From positions 1,120,001 through 1,184,000 of the forward strand of contig CAWGVS010000006.1 of NCBI GenBank assembly GCA_963826115.1: a stretch of DNA of 64,000 bases, read 5' to 3'. The notes under the pieces are model-generated. The model saw nothing but the letters and a program-made list of their open reading frames with translations. It was not told the DNA's origin and did no database searches. This document shows, in pieces, positions 33,825 to 40,321 of the stretch. Each line of letters starts with the position of its first letter. Positions within the stretch are counted from its first letter, which is position 1. This DNA is from an uncultured Candidatus Rokubacteria bacterium. Its GTDB lineage: Bacteria > Methylomirabilota > Methylomirabilia > Rokubacteriales > DASRDR01. The position numbers and the translations under genes were made by a program.

Positions 33825-34757
33825 TCAGTCCTTCCCGACCTCCGCCCGCGCCGCGCGGATCAGCTCGGGGAAGCTGTAGCTCGGGATCGCGCAGCCGGGC
33901 GCGAGGAAGAGCTTCCGCGTCCCGGCCTCCTCGACGGCGGAGCGGACCTGCTCGCGGATCTTGGCGGCCGACGTGTACGGGAAGTTCACGTGGTCGAGGC
34001 CGCCCATCAGGGCCCGCGGCGTGACCTTGCGCATCAGCGTGAGCGGCGGGCCCGAGTCCCGGTCCGCCCACGAGATCGCGTGCACCGGGTAGTCCTGGAG
34101 CCGGTCGAGGAAGAGCTCCCGCCCGTGGGCGTGGAGGATGTGGAACTCGCCGAACGGGCGGATGGCCTCGAGGAACGCGAGGTCGAACGGGCGCATGAAG
34201 CGCTCGTACTGCTCCGCGGTCAGGGACTCCGGCGTCGCCGGCACCGAGAAGAAGATGCCCGACGCGCCGCCGTGGAGGCTCGCGATCGCGTAGCGGACCA
34301 GGTTCTCGTTGACCACCGCGAGCGCGGCCTCGAGCTCCGCCGGGTGCTCCTGCATGAAGGGGCCCATCGCCTCCTTCAGGACGTTGCGCTTCAGCGTGCT
34401 CCACGCGTTGAAGACGGTGTCGACCACGAGCGCCTTGCCCTTGAGCGACTGGCCGATCAGGCGGACCGCCTCGAGCTGCTCCCCCAGCGAGCCCTGCCGC
34501 ACGTCGAAGGCGATGATCCGCTTGAGCTCCTTGGGGTCGCTCAGGGTCTCGATGCTCCGAGGCATCGGGTAGGAGTAGTCGTTCATGATCTTGAGCCAGT
34601 CGAGGTTGTAGGCCTCGAAGAACTCGAGGTGCGTCTGCGCCGTTCGCTCCGCCGGCGCGTGCTGCAGCCCGAAGTGGTACCAGACGCTGAACGGCGGCCG
34701 GTCGACGTCCGCTCCCGACAGGGCCGCCCGGACACGCTCGATCTTCGTCATGCTCAT
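33825..34757 (-). CDS. Uroporphyrinogen decarboxylase (URO-D)-like family protein
   Basis: ERVRAALSGADVDRPPFSVWYHF, PFDL, ILHAHG, LFLAPGC; AGGAGA RBS. Confidence 0.85.
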   Translation of the reverse strand: MSMTKIERVRAALSGADVDRPPFSVWYHFGLQHAPAERTAQTHLEFFEAYNLDWLKIMNDYSYPMPRSIETLSDPKELKRIIAFDVRQGSLGEQLEAVRLIGQSLKGKALVVDTVFNAWSTLKRNVLKEAMGPFMQEHPAELEAALAVVNENLVRYAIASLHGGASGIFFSVPATPESLTAEQYERFMRPFDLAFLEAIRPFGEFHILHAHGRELFLDRLQDYPVHAISWADRDSGPPLTLMRKVTPRALMGGLDHVNFPYTSAAKIREQVRSAVEEAGTRKLFLAPGCAIPSYSFPELIRAARAEVGKD

Positions 34758-34774
34758 CTCGTCTCCTCGCAGGG

Positions 34775-35314
34775 TCAGATGACGTAGAGCCAGGCCCGGG
34801 AGGCGAGGTCCCCCGCCTTCCAGGACCCCGTCTCGCCCAGCCAGCCGGCTGCCTCGTCCCCGTCGCTCGTGCGCGCGACCGCCACCGTGCTCCCGTCCCG
34901 GAGGAACCCGCCGAAGGCGACGCGGCCGGCCCCGCGGAGCTCGACGAGCGCGAGCTGCGCCATGTCGCGGTCCGCCGTGGGGCCCTCGACGACGAGGGCC
35001 GGGCGGGTGCCGTCGAGGACGACCGGCGGCTCCGGGTCCCACGGCTCGACGAACGTCTCGAACTCGTGGGCGACGTACCCGGTCCACGCGCCGACGCGGT
35101 GGTAGGGGTCTTCCTCGATGATGGCGCGGAGCGCGCCGGCGTCCGGCACGCGGTAGAACAGCTCGGCCCGCCGCCCGTCCGGGCTCGGTCCCCCGGCCAC
35201 GAGAGCCCTGGCCGATCGGAGCCGCGCCATGCGCTCGATGTGCGCCTGGCGGACGGGCGCTCGGCGGGCCAGGTAGTCGTCGGCGCAGGCGATTTGGACG
35301 TGGACGACGGTCAT
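34775..35314 (-). CDS. YciI-like protein (tandem dimeric alpha/beta-barrel)
   Basis: YLARRAPVRQAHIER, AGGP, EDPYHRVG, then a second degenerate repeat. Confidence 0.75.
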   Translation of the reverse strand: MTVVHVQIACADDYLARRAPVRQAHIERMARLRSARALVAGGPSPDGRRAELFYRVPDAGALRAIIEEDPYHRVGAWTGYVAHEFETFVEPWDPEPPVVLDGTRPALVVEGPTADRDMAQLALVELRGAGRVAFGGFLRDGSTVAVARTSDGDEAAGWLGETGSWKAGDLASRAWLYVI

Positions 35315-35474
35315 CGGCGCTCCTCGATCCTTCGCGAGCCCGGCGATTCCGGACGTCCGGGAGACGGCGGGCCCGCGCCTCCGCATGATACCCCCGGACG
35401 ACGGGCCGCGGGGGCCCGGGTCCCGGGCCGTCACGGGCCCGCACCGAATCGGCTCCCGCCGACGTCGTATCAGC

Positions 35475-36428
35475 GTGGAGGCCCTGGAGTTCCTCGTCCG
35501 GCACGGCTATCTCGTGCTGTTCCTGGTGGTCCTCGGGGAGCAGCTCGGCCTGCCTCTGGTCGGGGCGCCCGTCCTCCTCGCCGCCGGGGCCCTGGCCGGG
35601 ACCGGCCGGTTCTCGCTCGTCCTGGCGCTCGTGCTGGCGGTCGTCGCGTGCCTCCTGGGCGACCTGGTCTGGTTCGAGCTGGGCCGTCGCCGCGGCTCGT
35701 CGGTCCTGGCATTCCTGTGCCGCGTCGCGCTCGAGCCCGACTCGTGCGTCCGTCGCACGGAGGACGTCTTCTCCCGGTGGGGCGCGCGGGTCCTGCTGAT
35801 CGCGAAGTTCGTCCCCGGGCTCAACACGGTCGCGCCGCCGCTGGCCGGCGTCGTCGGGATCCCGCGCGCGCGGTTCCTCCGCTACGACGCGGGAGGCGCG
35901 GCGGCCTGGGCGGTCGTCTACGTCGGGCTCGGCTACGCGTTCAGCGCCCAGCTCGAGGCCGTGGCGCTCGCCCTGGCGAGCCTGGGCCGCGGCGCCGCGG
36001 TGGTGGTGGGCGTCGCGCTCGCCGGGTACGTCGTCCTCAAGTACGTGCAGCGCCGGCTGTTCATCCGGAGCCTCCGGATCGCGCGGATCGCGCCCGAGGA
36101 GCTCCAGGCGCGGATGACGGGCGGCGAGGTGCTCGTGATCGTCGACCTCCGGACGTCGGAGCACATCGCGAGCGACGGGCTCTGCATCCCCGGCGCGCTC
36201 CAGATGGACCCCGCGGAGCTCGCGCGCCGCCACGGCGAGATCCCCCGGGATCGGGAGATCGTCCTCTACTGCTCCTGACCCTCCGAGGCGACGAGCGCCC
36301 GGGTGGCGCTCCGGCTCAGGCGGGTGGGGGTGACGCGGGTGCGGCCGCTCCTGGGAGGGTTCGACGCCTGGCGCGCCGGCGGGTTCCCGGTCCAGCCCGT
36401 TCTCGGCGCCGAGAACCGCGCGGCCTGA
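35475..36428 (+). CDS. DedA/VTT-rhodanese fusion, probable selenoprotein (TGA 36276-36278 read as Sec)
   Basis: DedA motifs GEQLGLP and AKFVPGL; rhodanese IVDLR, IPGA, IVLYCS-[TGA]-PSEATSARVALRL...VRPLLGGFDAW. The frame stays open to TGA 36426-36428. Confidence 0.82.
36279..36315 (+). promoter_or_regulatory. Bacterial SECIS-like hairpin
   Basis: GAGCGCC (36293-36299), loop CGGGT, GGCGCTC (36305-36311); 21 nt lie between the UGA and the G-containing loop. Confidence 0.65.
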
Positions 36429-36439
36429 CCCGCGGCGGC

Positions 36440-38998
36440 CTACTCGCCGCGGAGGATCGGCAGCGGCTTCCGCCCGAGGAGGCGGAAGGTTCCGGCGAAG
36501 CCGACCCCCACCGCCAGCCCGATCGTCGCCAGGAGCGCCACGGCGACGGGGAGGGGGTCGAGCGCCGGGGGCACGTCGAGGACGAAGCGGAGGACCGCCC
36601 ACGCGGTGAGCGCGCCGGTCGCCGCGCCGCCGATGCCGGCCACGAGCCCGAGGCACCCGTACTCGACGGCGAACGCGCGCGCGACGCGGCCTCGCGTCGC
36701 CCCGATGGTGCGGAGGAGGGCCGACTCGTAGAGCCGCTGCGCGCGGCTCTGGGCGAGCGTCTCCGCCATCACGGTGAAACCGGCCCCCAGGACGAAGAGC
36801 GCGACCAGCCGCACCGCGACCGCGATCCGGTCGACCACCCCGGTGATGCGCTCCAGCACGTCGCGGACGGGGATCGCCGTGACGTTCGCGAAGGCCGCCG
36901 CGACGCGCTCCTGCACGACCTGGTCGGCGCCCGGCGGGACCCGCGCCGTGGCGAGGTACGCCGTCGGCGCTCCGTCGAGCGGCCCCGGCGAGAAGATCAC
37001 GAAGAAGTTCGCGCCGAGCGTCTGCCAGTCCACCTTCCGGAGGCTCAGCACCTCCGCGCGCACCGGCACGCCCTGGACGTCGAACGTGAGGGTGCCGCCG
37101 ACGTCGACGCCGAGCGCGCGCGCGGCCTCCGCCTCGACGGAGATCAACGCGCGCCCCCGGTCGCTCGCGTCCCACCAGCGGCCGCGCGTCAGGACGGTGC
37201 CGGCCGGGGACGCTTCCGCGAAGGTCAGCACGTACTCCCGCGTGACGCGCCAGGCGTCCTCGCGGCCCGCCCAGCGTTCCCGCGCGATCGGCGTCCCGTT
37301 GATCGCGCTCAGGCGGGCGCGCACGACCGGCACCAGCGCCGGCGGGGAAGCGCCGGGGACGGACTCGATCGTCCGGCGAAAGGCGTCCGCCTGGTCGGGC
37401 TGCACGTCCACGAAGAAGAAGGACGGCGCCTCGCGCCGCCGGTCGAGGTCGAGCTGCCGGGTGAGCCCGCGCTCGAGGAGCGCGACGGCGGTGAGGAGCG
37501 TCACGCCGATGCCGAGCGCCACCGTGACCCCGATCGCCTGGTTGCCGGGCCGCGTGAGCGCCCGGAGCCCGTGGCGCCAGGCGATGGAGCGCGGGGAAGC
37601 GACCGATCCGGCGACGCGCCGGAGCGCCCACGCGCCGAGGACCAGAACACCCAGCGCGCCGGCGGCGGCCCCGAGGAAGATGGCGCCGATGCGGAGGGGG
37701 CCGGCCTGCCAGAGCGCCAGGAGCGCGAGCCCCCCGGCGATCACGCCCGCGGTCGTCCACGGCCGGCGCGGGCGCACGGTCCCCGCGTCCACCGGGTGGC
37801 GGAGCAGGATCGCCGGCGGCACCGCGCGCGCGGAGAGGAGCGGCCAGAGGGCGAAGAGTAGCGTCGCCAGGCACCCGGCCAGGAGCCCGGTCAGGACCGC
37901 GGTCGGCGCGGGACGCGCCTCGAGCGCGAAGGGAACGAACGGCTGGAGGAGCGGCCCGAGGAGGAGCTGGGCGGCGGTGCCGAGCGCCGCGCCCGTAAGG
38001 CTCCCGAGAGCGCCGAGCGCGAGCGCTTGGACCACGTACACGGCCGTCAGCGTCCGCCCGCTCGCGCCCAGGCAGCGGAGGATGGCGATGGTGCCCACCT
38101 TCTTCGCGAGGAAGGCGCGGACGGCGGCCGCCACGCCGATCCCGCCGACCAGGAGGCTCGTCACGCCCACCAGGCGCAGGTAGGCGGAGAGCTGGTCGAA
38201 GAAGCGGCGGAGGCCCGGCTGCGCCTCGTCGAAGGTCGCCACCCGCACGGCGGGATCCGCCATCGCCCCGACGAGCGCGGCGCGGGTGGCGCGCGGGTCG
38301 ACGCCGTCGGGGAGGCGGACGAGCGTGCGATGACGCACGCGGCTGCCGAGCTGGACGAGCCCCGTCGTCTCGAGGCTCCGGGCGCTCAGGAGGACGCGCG
38401 GGCCCAGGGTGAAGAGCGACGCCGCGCGGTCCGGCTCCTTCCGGAGGACGCCGGCCACGGTGAAGGTCGCGTCGCCGACGAGGATCGTGTCGCCGGGCGC
38501 GACGCCGAGCCGCCCGAGGACGGCCTCCTCCACCACGACGCCGCCGTCCGCGAGGAGCCGGTCGAGCGGGCGCGCCGGCAGGGTATCCAGCCGGCCGTAG
38601 AGCGGGTAGTCACCGTCCACCGCCTTCAGCTCGACGAGGAGCGTGCGCCCCGATCCGGGGTGCCGCGCCATCCCGACGAGCTCCTTCACCCGCGCCACGG
38701 TCGCGCCGCGGCGCGCGAGGTCCTGGACCGGCCCCTCCGCCGCGGCGTCGAGGGGGCGGGCCGAGCGGAGCTCGACGTCCCCGCCCAGGAGCGCGCGGGC
38801 CTCGCGCCCGAGCGAGCGGTCGATCGACGCCGCCACGCTCAGGACGGCCACGAGCGCGCCGACCCCGAGCGCGATGCACGCGAGGAAGCCCGCGAAGTGG
38901 CGCCAGGCGCCGCGGGTCTCTCGCCAGGCGAGACCGGCGACGAGGCGCCAGGGCAGCGCGGGCGGCGCCGGCGCGCCCGACGAGACCGGTGATCTCAC
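36440..38998 (-). CDS. ybbP: ABC transporter permease, FtsX-like (YbbP type)
   Basis: LAWRE, LLGGDVEL, YPLYGRL, APSFFFVDVQPDQ, SLRKVDW, NFFVIF. Confidence 0.88.
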   Translation of the reverse strand: MRSPVSSGAPAPPALPWRLVAGLAWRETRGAWRHFAGFLACIALGVGALVAVLSVAASIDRSLGREARALLGGDVELRSARPLDAAAEGPVQDLARRGATVARVKELVGMARHPGSGRTLLVELKAVDGDYPLYGRLDTLPARPLDRLLADGGVVVEEAVLGRLGVAPGDTILVGDATFTVAGVLRKEPDRAASLFTLGPRVLLSARSLETTGLVQLGSRVRHRTLVRLPDGVDPRATRAALVGAMADPAVRVATFDEAQPGLRRFFDQLSAYLRLVGVTSLLVGGIGVAAAVRAFLAKKVGTIAILRCLGASGRTLTAVYVVQALALGALGSLTGAALGTAAQLLLGPLLQPFVPFALEARPAPTAVLTGLLAGCLATLLFALWPLLSARAVPPAILLRHPVDAGTVRPRRPWTTAGVIAGGLALLALWQAGPLRIGAIFLGAAAGALGVLVLGAWALRRVAGSVASPRSIAWRHGLRALTRPGNQAIGVTVALGIGVTLLTAVALLERGLTRQLDLDRRREAPSFFFVDVQPDQADAFRRTIESVPGASPPALVPVVRARLSAINGTPIARERWAGREDAWRVTREYVLTFAEASPAGTVLTRGRWWDASDRGRALISVEAEAARALGVDVGGTLTFDVQGVPVRAEVLSLRKVDWQTLGANFFVIFSPGPLDGAPTAYLATARVPPGADQVVQERVAAAFANVTAIPVRDVLERITGVVDRIAVAVRLVALFVLGAGFTVMAETLAQSRAQRLYESALLRTIGATRGRVARAFAVEYGCLGLVAGIGGAATGALTAWAVLRFVLDVPPALDPLPVAVALLATIGLAVGVGFAGTFRLLGRKPLPILRGE

Positions 38999-39669
38999 GC
39001 CGCGGCGCGGTCTCCCACGACCCGCCCGTCGCGCAGCTCGATGACGCGGTCGGCATGCGCCGCGAGGGCGGGGTCGTGCGTCACCAGGATCAGCGTGGTC
39101 CCGTGGCGGCGGTGGAGGCCCACCAGGAGGTCGACGATCTGGGCGCCGGTGGCCGAGTCGAGGTTGCCCGTCGGCTCGTCCGCCAGGATCAGGCCCGGGC
39201 GGTTCGCGACCGCGCGGGCGAGCGCGACCCGCTGCTGCTCGCCGCCCGACAGCTCCGCCGGGTAATGGGCCACGCGCGCCTTGAGACCGACGTCCTCGAG
39301 GAGCGCCCGCGCCCGGACGGGCGCGTCCGCGGCGCCCGCGAGCTCGAGGGGGATCGCGACGTTCTCGAGCGCGGTGAGGGTCGGGATGAGGTGGAAGGAC
39401 TGGAAGACGTAGCCGATCTTTCCCAGGCGCAGGCGCGCGAGAGCGTCCTCGTCGAGCGCGGCCAGCTCGATCCCGTCCACCCGGATGGAGCCGGCGGTCG
39501 GCCGGTCGAGGCCCGCGACGAGGCCCAGGAGCGTCGACTTGCCGCTTCCGGAGGGACCCGTGATCGCCATGAACTGGCCGGGGGGCACGCTGAGCGTCAC
39601 GCCGTCCAGGACTGTCACGACGCCGGCGGCGCTCCGGAGCCGCATGACGAGATCGCGGACCTCGACCAT
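38995..39669 (-). CDS. ybbA: ABC transporter ATP-binding protein (YbbA/LolD type)
   Basis: GPSGSGKS, LSGGEQQRVA, ADEPTGNLD. Confidence 0.9.
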   Translation of the reverse strand: MVEVRDLVMRLRSAAGVVTVLDGVTLSVPPGQFMAITGPSGSGKSTLLGLVAGLDRPTAGSIRVDGIELAALDEDALARLRLGKIGYVFQSFHLIPTLTALENVAIPLELAGAADAPVRARALLEDVGLKARVAHYPAELSGGEQQRVALARAVANRPGLILADEPTGNLDSATGAQIVDLLVGLHRRHGTTLILVTHDPALAAHADRVIELRDGRVVGDRAAA

Positions 39670-39694
39670 CCGCGCCTCATATTACACTGTGCTC

Positions 39695-40321
39695 ATGTGG
39701 GGACTTCGCGCGGCCGCGCTCGCGCTCGTGTTCGGCCTCGGGGCGTCGGCCGTCCAGGCGGCGCCGGCGCCCGAGCGCGTCGTCGTCGTGCTCGGCGACA
39801 GCCTCACCGCGGGGTGGGGCGTGGCGCCCGAGGAGGCGTGGCCGGCGCTGGTCGACGCGCGCCTCCGGCGCGAGGGCTACCCGTATCGCGTCGTCAACGC
39901 GGGGGTGAGCGGCGACACGACGGCCGGCGGCCTCCGTCGCGTCGACTGGGCGCTGCGGAGCCGTCCCGCCATCGCCGTGGTGGCGCTCGGCGCCAACGAC
40001 GGGCTCCGGGGCCTGGGCACCGATGCGATGGAGACGAACCTCCTGGCGATCGTCGAGCGGTTCAAGGCGAACGGCGCCCGCGTCCTCGTCGCGGGGATGA
40101 TGGTCCCGCCGAACTACGGCGCCGCGTACACGCGCGCCTTCCGGGAGGTCTACCCGGACGTCGCGCGCCGGACGCGCTCGGCCCTGATGCCCTTCCTGCT
40201 CGACGGCGTCGCCGCCGATCCCGCGCTGAACCAGGCGGACGGCATCCATCCGAACGCCGCCGGCCACCGCGCGATCGCCGACCGCGTGTGGCCCCACCTG
40301 GTCGCGCTGCTGACGCGATGA
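39695..40321 (+). CDS. tesA: Arylesterase/acyl-CoA thioesterase I (SGNH hydrolase)
   Basis: Signal peptide; GDSLTAG, NAGVSGDTT, LGANDGLRG, DGIHPN; divergent from ybbA as in the known ybbAP-tesA arrangement. Confidence 0.9.
   Translation: MWGLRAAALALVFGLGASAVQAAPAPERVVVVLGDSLTAGWGVAPEEAWPALVDARLRREGYPYRVVNAGVSGDTTAGGLRRVDWALRSRPAIAVVALGANDGLRGLGTDAMETNLLAIVERFKANGARVLVAGMMVPPNYGAAYTRAFREVYPDVARRTRSALMPFLLDGVAADPALNQADGIHPNAAGHRAIADRVWPHLVALLTR

Follow-up and report, generated by a model that had tools for sequence, protein, structure and literature searches.

The window analysed here is a stretch of 64,000 nucleotides from the genome of an uncultured Candidatus Rokubacteria bacterium (genome assembly G000 in what follows, the window being C6:1120001-1184000), and the gene under study occupies positions 35475..36428 (+). 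From the comparison of sequences it is highly probable, at about nine chances in ten, that the UGA at 36276-36278 within this gene is decoded as selenocysteine (Sec), and that what gene callers have cut short is a single intact gene for a DedA-rhodanese selenoprotein. The full coding sequence would begin at a GTG, place Sec at residue 268 of 317, and end at the true stop TGA at 36426-36428. In the protein so read, residues 1 to about 199 would form a DedA/VTT transporter-like inner-membrane domain, and residues from about 200 to 311 a rhodanese domain with a predicted cytoplasmic location. Decoding of the UGA would be carried out by SelB and tRNA-Sec, directed by a hairpin at 36293-36311 acting as a bacterial selenocysteine insertion sequence (SECIS). 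The original prediction for this DNA had proposed such a hidden membrane selenoprotein, a DedA-rhodanese fusion with a C-x-U active site and a SECIS hairpin, and it finds support in the Sec machinery of the genome, in the alternation of Cys and TGA among homologs, and in the conservation of the hairpin in TGA forms only.

Conservation of the in-frame TGA and of the downstream hairpin

From the GTG at 35475, the frame runs as a 267-residue stretch that ends in ...PRDREIVLYCS and is followed by the in-frame TGA at 36276-36278. The open reading frame (ORF) track stops there, at IVLYCS-TGA, and the same frame stays open for another 49 sense codons (36279..36425, +; PSEATSARVALRLRRVGVTRVRPLLGGFDAWRAGGFPVQPVLGAENRAA) up to the second TGA at 36426-36428, just as had been described from the letters of the window. 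The GTG at 35475 is favoured as the start over an ATG at 35385, given that the N-termini of the homologs lie 3-6 residues ahead of EFL(V/L)RHGY. Two domains are recognised in the translated frame, namely a DedA/VTT membrane domain at 35562..35936 (+) (residues 30-154; PF09335, 45.9 bits versus a cut-off of 33.9) and a rhodanese domain at 36093..36377 (+) that spans the TGA (residues 207-301; PF00581, 45.5 bits versus a cut-off of 22.2). The match to PF00581 is whole only when the TGA is translated, which agrees with the earlier claim that the read-through completes the rhodanese domain. The G+C content of third codon positions (GC3) in the frame is 97% before the TGA and 96% after it, and for the stretch past the TGA the other two frames give 81% and 63%. 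Given that the G+C content of the window is 73%, an open frame of 49 codons is unremarkable there, and the significance of the read-through frame and of the hairpin is here taken to come from homology and conservation.

A six-frame search of 61 related genomes gave 48 near-full-length matches, 47 of which (37 genomes, 46-100% identical) carry exactly one TGA. Among the loci of relatives that were fetched, one of which (L026) comes from the unpublished genome G038, the TGA stands at the aligned column in 30 out of 30, within YC[ST]U-P[NSK]EA[ST]SAR. The scan of species-representative genomes gave 589 matches, and the best 80 of these are loci of which 47 have TGA and 33 TGC or TGT. Two of the 80 are duplicates of earlier loci, which leaves 108 distinct loci in total. 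These come from several phyla and have 75 TGA and 33 TGC/TGT at the Sec column, a ratio that is biased because one of the three seed patterns demands Cys and only the best 80 of the 589 matches were kept. The alternation of Cys and TGA on which the original prediction depended is thus found at exactly this column, with the downstream sequence conserved: the matches of the relatives extend to query residues 305-317, and P269, E271, A275, A278, G285, P291, and G295, all past the UGA, are invariant in 108/108 loci. The maximum-likelihood tree of the 108 sequences requires at least five changes between Sec and Cys, four of them forced by well-supported branches. TGA forms predominate in records labelled Acidobacteriota and in the order to which the window genome belongs, which interleaves on the tree with records labelled Candidatus Rokuibacteriota or Methylomirabilota, and Cys forms predominate in Nitrospira and Verrucomicrobiota.

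The same alternation is seen in protein databases. Among the best 120 matches, 69 are full length and 51, most of them 267-269 residues long and covering 83-84% of the query, stop at the TGA, the latter being named just 'membrane protein DedA...', which bears out the view that annotation pipelines overlook the gene; the window protein's own entry has 297 residues. The Sec column holds Cys in 67/67 of the full-length homologs that were aligned (of the 69), so the statement that DedA-rhodanese fusions read YCxCPxE at this point holds as well. In the best 150 representatives of clusters at 50% identity, 38 stop exactly one residue ahead of the Sec column, ending for example in LYCT or LYCS, 18 fall short, and the others have Cys (85), Ser (7), Glu (1), or Gln (1) at this column.

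The TGA is also present in DNA assembled independently of this genome. Soil-metagenome contigs from two independent studies span the site, one over 260 nt with 0 differences and one over 1002 nt with 48 differences, and neither has a change listed at 36276-36278, which answers the concern that sequence reads might show a Cys codon there. When soil contigs are taken at 85% likeness, a peak of depth lies over the TGA and the hairpin, at 36221-36334 (X1: 9-17 versus 0-3.5 elsewhere), and many short contig pieces of relatives start and stop around 36231-36323. The stretch from the TGA to the SECIS is the part of the gene that is most conserved in nucleotides across related organisms. Sequencing runs with small word shares were left aside in judging habitat.

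The hairpin at 36293..36311 (+) consists of a stem GAGCGCC/GGCGCUC (36293-36299/36305-36311) of 7 bp and a loop CGGGU (36300-36304) of 5 nt, with 21 nt from the UGA to the loop, so that the perfect stem, the loop, and the spacing are all present as originally noted. Taken alone, the 19-nt hairpin has a folding energy of -12.1 kcal/mol (z = -3.29), and 0 of 200 shuffled sequences were as stable. The model for bacterial SECIS elements (bSECIS) in the available part of PMC13188914 has an apical loop of 3-9 nt, a stem of 4-16 bp, a G in the first two loop positions, a distance from UGA to loop of 16-37 nt, and a minimum free energy of -7.5 kcal/mol or lower; the hairpin fits these values in loop, stem, position of the G, spacing, and energy. 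A scan of 36200-36450 against Rfam at E <= 10 did not match any bacterial SECIS family; it returned chance-level matches to unrelated families, mir-671 (E = 0.2) and the S15-Halobacteria leader (E = 5.3), which were rejected.

It is the conservation of the hairpin that ties it to the TGA. The 5' arm AGCGCC is found in 75/75 TGA forms, and six core pairs are kept in 69/75 and five in 6/75, while just 3/33 Cys forms have all six. The loops of the 75 TGA forms are CGGGU (34), CGUGU (23), CGUGC (9), CGGGC (6), AGUCU (2), and AGGAU (1); the second loop base is G in every one of them, and the base after it is G or U without exception. Synonymous variation was evaluated in the TGA forms at the 51 columns where a residue with 4- or 6-fold degeneracy is conserved in at least 90%. 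Codon entropy is zero at just three of these columns, S274 (AGC in 75/75), A275 (GCC in 75/75), and A278 (GCG in 75/75), which are exactly both arms of the stem, and for the other columns the lowest value is 1.03 bits and the median 1.59 bits. Of the three invariant columns, A275 and A278 can be scored in the 33 Cys forms, where they have 1.54 and 1.66 bits, respectively. Since these two Ala columns show ordinary codon variation in the Cys forms, the invariance of the stem codons does not come from protein constraint. As judged from these alignments, there is selection at the RNA level on the hairpin, present only when the codon is TGA, and the hairpin conservation that had been anticipated is found in TGA forms only.

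The genome has the complete set of genes for Sec insertion that had been looked for. The selA gene scores 503.7 bits, the winged-helix domain of SelB (75.6 bits) lies about 2 kb from it, and the tRNA-Sec (anticodon tca; C8 c85942-86039) stands just upstream of the selA/selB cluster, the three being together on contig C8 (C8:81430-86039). The selD gene is at C5:561687-562604 (+) (locus L004) and has an in-frame TGA of its own, in GAGU-ACK, with a hairpin of 8 bp and a GGA loop 12 nt past its UGA. SelA was found in 52/61 of the related genomes, and the one complete chromosome with the TGA form that was checked, from Acidobacteriaceae, has both SelA and a Sec-containing SelD. Of the genomes with the Cys form, four were checked, three from Nitrospira and one from Verrucomicrobiae, all represented by large contigs or chromosomes, and in 4/4 neither SelA nor SelD scored above the cut-off.

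Several observations weigh against the decoding of the UGA as Sec. SelA was absent at E <= 1e-30 in 5/30 of the TGA-form genomes analysed (G029, G038, G042, G047, and G048), which are metagenome-assembled genomes (MAGs) that are 89-100% complete, and the SelB-wing domain was found in only 1/5 of them; G025 has a TGA form and no match to SelA either. In the same five MAGs, selD is above the cut-off in 5/5 and has an in-frame TGA in 4/5. We infer that the missing SelA reflects gaps in fragmented assemblies. The hairpin is no stabler than shuffled sequences when taken in longer contexts (z = -0.68 for 71 nt and -0.82 for 45 nt), and its stem is almost invariant and thus shows no compensatory changes, so that its support is synonymous-site constraint and not covariation. 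RNA-library contig pieces near the TGA and the hairpin are just 40-51 nt long, come from relatives, and were not counted as expression; two of the metatranscriptome entries, X19 and X20, have identical figures and are probably one data set filed twice. Finally, the best NCBIfam match for residues 200-307, the selenoprotein rhodanese model NF041203, reaches 82.4 bits, which is under its cut-off of 115.

Some of these points would suit a reading in which the TGA is a conserved functional stop that yields a DedA protein of about 267 residues with a rhodanese stub, the hairpin being regulatory or terminator-like, or allowing a low level of read-through with an amino acid other than Sec (Trp or Cys). 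A G+C-rich hairpin could serve other roles, and a few of the MAGs with TGA forms gave no match to SelA and SelB. Nonetheless, this is very improbable, given that such a stop would, in the predicted model, cut the fold after its central strand and leave it without the active-site helix and two further elements, that the residues past the TGA are conserved equally to those before it, that the TGA stands in the place of an invariant Cys, that Sec machinery was found alongside TGA forms and not alongside Cys forms, and that the hairpin matches bSECIS in position and loop sequence and is not followed by a run of T. That the TGA is a true stop from a nonsense mutation, or from an assembly or sequencing error, in a pseudogene or short DedA with a decaying downstream frame, has practically no probability, for although gene callers end at the TGA in this protein and in the 51 database matches, and chance long open frames are common at 73% G+C, the TGA holds one column in 75 distinct loci from several phyla, about 40 downstream residues are conserved as protein with a GC3 of 96%, both the TGA and the hairpin recur in a paralog of this genome (C10:571258-572178), and sequencing or assembly error in particular is rejected by the cross-phylum conservation of the TGA and by the two independent metagenome contigs that carry it.

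Predicted structure and the redox-capable residues

The structure was modelled with AlphaFold2 from an alignment of 68 sequences, with C substituted for U. The model has a mean predicted local distance difference test score (pLDDT) of 85.9 and a predicted template-modelling score (pTM) of 0.77, and contains nine helices over residues 2-199 followed by a complete rhodanese fold. The block-mean pLDDT is 86-91 across residues 261-310, and in the model the codons past the UGA supply the helix 269-283, the strand 289-292, and the helix 295-301 of the rhodanese fold. In Foldseek, the rhodanese part matches 3tp9 (root-mean-square deviation of 1.7 A over 105 columns) and 5ve3 (1.9 A over 104 columns), the latter a persulfide dioxygenase-rhodanese fusion, with a probability of 1.00, and for the DedA part none of the solved structures matched. 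The DedA part aligns without gaps to the canonical DedA of the same genome, at 34% identity.

The Sec residue (36276..36278, +; motif LYC-S-U-P) is the second member of the C-x-U motif, the first being Cys266 (36270..36272, +), which is Cys in 108/108 loci and directly follows the strand 261-265 in the model. This central strand leads into a three-residue turn, C266-S267-U268, and the active-site helix starts from P269. With both residues in the active-site turn, two positions apart, C266 and U268 are placed in the model so that they could form a selenenylsulfide. The position of the canonical rhodanese Cys depends on where the alignment is anchored. The gapped HMMER alignment to 3tp9 and the tblastn alignments to the canonical rhodaneses of the same genome both equate the canonical catalytic Cys with C266 and put a two-residue insertion after it, whereas anchoring on the helix side, at [RT]-S-A, equates it with U268. 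Sequence alone thus allows either C266 or U268 as the canonical residue.

The membrane domain contributes a second pair, C82 (35718-35720) and C91 (35745-35747), which at 35718..35747 (+) flanks an LEPD turn; the turn belongs to a loop rich in Arg for which a cytoplasmic location is predicted. Both are invariant in 108/108 loci, and neither occurs in YghB of Escherichia coli or in this genome's canonical DedA. The loop 69-106 has eight Lys and Arg, and the loop past the last transmembrane helix has six and no Asp or Glu, and by the positive-inside rule the rhodanese domain and the loop 69-106 are predicted to be cytoplasmic. This topology would bring four conserved redox-capable residues, C82, C91, C266, and U268, to one face of the membrane. 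All four positions are present in 72/94 full-length cluster representatives.

Candidate functions of the fusion

The C266-x-U268 pair would be the catalytic centre of the protein, working through selenenylsulfide cycling or as a carrier of a persulfide- or perselenide-type adduct, and the site may act on, or be loaded by, a small sulfur, chalcogen, or redox-active substrate handled by the DedA domain. C82 and C91 could act as a relay or as the redox partner of C266 and U268. We tentatively regard the fusion as a Cys/Sec centre on the cytoplasmic side, for redox or sulfur-transfer chemistry, that either serves the DedA transporter or is served by it, probably with a substrate other than undecaprenyl phosphate (UndP), a possibility that we rate somewhat short of even odds. 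The Sec has most likely replaced an ancestral Cys as a catalytic improvement, and the occurrence of Cys forms in genomes that lack selD makes a selenium-specific role of the DedA-rhodanese family unlikely.

Three observations speak against this functional proposal. One is the uncertain position of the canonical rhodanese Cys described above. Another is that inheritance of C82/C91 is not strictly coupled to that of the C-x-C/U pair, a few representatives having just one of the two pairs. The third is that clustering of the ORFs within 3 kb of the 108 loci gave no operon partner. The commonest neighbours were an upstream MarR-like ORF on the same strand (16/108), SDR (14), nitroreductase-like (14), and dCTP-deaminase-like (13) ORFs, with names assigned by reading the sequences and not by profile match.

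An alternative, unlikely though not negligible, is a selenoprotein whose rhodanese domain senses redox state and thereby gates a UndP or phospholipid flippase activity of the DedA domain, without being a catalyst that acts on a transported sulfur or chalcogen compound. DedA proteins of the COG0586 type are putative UndP flippases, and in the available part of PMC10127716 their subfamily includes rhodanese fusions; the best NCBIfam matches of DedA type are the UptA models, and four conserved redox-active residues would suit a switch. The scores are, however, far under the cut-offs of the UptA equivalogs (NF052604, 52.9 versus 250 bits; NF052605, 46.9 versus 300 bits). The hallmarks of UndP flippases, in the numbering of YghB and as given in the available part of Todor et al. 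(PMC10127716), are four in number: reentrant helix 1 has the acidic Glu39 and Asp51 at its tip, and reentrant helix 2 the basic Arg130 and Arg136. Like YghB, YqjA, and UptA, the window protein has the DedA core; it keeps Glu39 as E22, and the position of Arg130 remains basic as K111 (Lys in 108/108 loci). Unlike them, it lacks the equivalent of Arg136 and apparently that of Asp51, and it adds the C82/C91 pair and the rhodanese domain. Asp51 aligns with A31, less certainly since this is across a three-residue gap in an alignment of four sequences, and Arg136 aligns with N117, at a position where the DedA-rhodanese family has S, N, A, G, or D; the canonical DedA of the same genome has Arg at both the Arg130 and the Arg136 positions. 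Given that loss of these residues has been used to argue against UndP flipping in other subfamilies, the apparent absence of two of the four hallmarks argues, by the logic of the available part of PMC10127716, against a canonical UndP flippase, and such a role for the DedA-rhodanese family appears doubtful from these alignments.

A more specific form of the sulfur-transfer proposal would have the DedA domain as the membrane half of a transporter-coupled chalcogen relay and not as a lipid flippase. A small sulfur, other chalcogen, or redox-active species passing the DedA domain would be captured or reduced on the cytoplasmic side by a thiol/selenol relay of C82/C91 and C266/U268. This is speculative, and we consider it rather unlikely as it stands; if true, it would represent a previously undescribed class of membrane-integrated (seleno)sulfurtransferase and would give the first biochemical handle on a non-lipid DedA substrate.

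A selenoprotein dedicated to the uptake or delivery of selenium, for example through import of selenite and its capture by the rhodanese domain for SelD, is improbable. Rhodaneses are able to carry selenium. A dedA mutant of a Cupriavidus/Ralstonia strain is also reported to have been linked to selenite resistance (Ledgham et al. 2005, as cited in PMC10127716). Against such a role, orthologs with all four positions as Cys occur in the three Nitrospira and one Verrucomicrobiae genomes that have no SelA and no SelD above the cut-off. In the window genome, moreover, selA, selB, and selC lie on contig C8 and selD on C5, apart from the DedA-rhodanese gene on C6, and sel genes are not recurrent beside the gene in the 108 loci.

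Relation to known proteins and meaning for the family

The closest catalogued selenoprotein is a rhodanese described as 'form 3' or COG0607 form 2, with C-x-U (NF041203), which is a predicted selenoprotein of unknown function in the available parts of PMC13188914 and PMC9312934. The window protein shares with this model, rhodanese_LYCAU, the type of domain and the position of Sec, LYC-x-U starting the active-site helix. The motif, taken from the name of the model and from a 'CxU' table entry in the available part of PMC13188914, is found as LYCSU in the window protein and as LYCAU in the paralog on C10. The difference is one of architecture, since NF041203 describes a stand-alone protein of about 126 residues, and in the window protein the domain closes a membrane protein of 317 residues, following a DedA domain of 200 residues. 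Catalogues list the Sec-bearing rhodanese subtype under reference 13 of a 2026 review, reportedly a paper from 2005. The C10 paralog scores 83.8 bits with NF041203, and the Cys-form fusions, at 78-80 bits, score the same as the Sec form, so that the fused rhodanese domain forms a branch of its own.

The combination of PF09335 and PF00581 is shared with Cys-type DedA-rhodanese fusions such as PA1209 of Pseudomonas aeruginosa, which have Cys where the window protein has Sec. Database homologs of this type, with 315-335 residues and YCxCPNE, are 51-58% identical to the window protein and carry NCBI names such as 'DedA family protein/thiosulfate sulfurtransferase GlpE'. The meaning of the DedA-rhodanese fusion is called unclear in the available part of PMC10127716. 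YgaP of E. coli resembles the window protein in that a single rhodanese domain is tethered to the inner membrane, and it is also a structural match (5hbo, 5hbl, and 5hbq); it differs in that its rhodanese domain, with one catalytic Cys and without Sec, precedes two transmembrane helices, and in that a DedA domain is missing. TsoB (NF045694), catalogued in the available part of PMC13188914 as a rhodanese/DsbD fusion-like selenoprotein, likewise joins a Sec-containing rhodanese domain to a membrane redox or transport module, and differs in its DsbD-like membrane domain and its UxxxxU motif with two Sec; the match to this model is 14.2 bits versus a cut-off of 805. No Sec-containing DedA protein was found in the literature searched, some recent papers and supplementary tables being outside its scope, and term searches of the available parts of PMC13188914, PMC9312934, PMC12013277, and the Haft preprint gave no DedA, VTT, or SNARE entry. 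Within the catalogues searched, what is known is thus the C-x-U rhodanese selenoprotein and the Cys-type DedA-rhodanese fusion, and what is new is the membrane-fused Sec form.

The window genome holds other genes of related kind. The second DedA-rhodanese paralog (G000:C10:571258-572178 (-), locus L122) is 53% identical, reads LYCAU-PNEATSAR, and has an identical GAGCGCC-CGGGU-GGCGCUC hairpin past its TGA; multiple TGA-containing copies (2-3) are also found in several relatives (G037, G040, G002, and G003). At G000:C5:920483-920983 (+) (loci L124/L127) there is a single-domain rhodanese, probably secreted given its signal-peptide-like N-terminus, with the TGA in LY-U-A-C-PHH. Its orthologs (n = 12) have TGA in 10 and TGC in 2, and the GGCCAGUUUGGCC hairpin that lies 17 nt downstream of the TGA is intact in the TGA forms and disrupted in the two Cys forms. 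That Sec takes the alternative position of the C-x-C motif in this protein (U-x-C) supports the view of C266 and U268 as a pair. A rhodanese domain in a longer ORF at G000:C5:319119-319445 (-) (locus L123) has its TGA in VVYCWDSA-U-DLSSRAAW, with a G+C-rich hairpin 13 nt downstream, and may be a third selenoprotein of rhodanese type. Relatives have many matches to the rhodanese part only (36-43% identical), each with a single TGA in an open frame of about 330-640 residues, as in G053:C162, G026:C15, G044:C34, G025:C126, and G058:C33, which suggests that there are further Sec-containing rhodanese fusion proteins in the order of the window genome.

In E. coli K-12 (NC_000913.3:1833401-1840774, locus L125), the DedA genes ydjX and ydjZ are clustered with ydjY (4Fe-4S), ynjA (AhpD-like), ynjBCD (ABC), and ynjE (rhodanese), which by annotation is an independent association of DedA with rhodanese. 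This cluster and the secreted U-x-C rhodanese are consistent with a general partnership between DedA and rhodanese proteins.

In the window, the gene is solitary between a divergent YCII-domain gene and a convergent MacB/FtsX-type permease. Upstream lie the YCII-domain gene (34775-35314, -) and a URO-D-like gene (33825-34793, -), and downstream the ABC permease of 852 residues (36440-38998, -) and its ATPase (38995-39669, -). An inverted repeat, CCGCGGCG...CGCCGCGG, follows directly past the stop (about 36430-36452), between the convergent genes, and a GDSL lipase-like ORF is found at 39485-40321 (+).

The decoding of the UGA as Sec would mean that a whole and widespread protein family is stored in public databases as truncated proteins. 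Selenoproteome surveys of bacteria from soil, groundwater, and wetlands (Acidobacteriota, Methylomirabilota/Rokubacteria, and some Nitrospirota) will then undercount the family, and function calls based on domains will miss its rhodanese half. It would also place selenocysteine on a membrane protein of the DedA family, the substrates of which remain debated, and a Sec/Cys catalytic site joined to a transporter would offer an experimentally tractable route to the substrate of this DedA subfamily.

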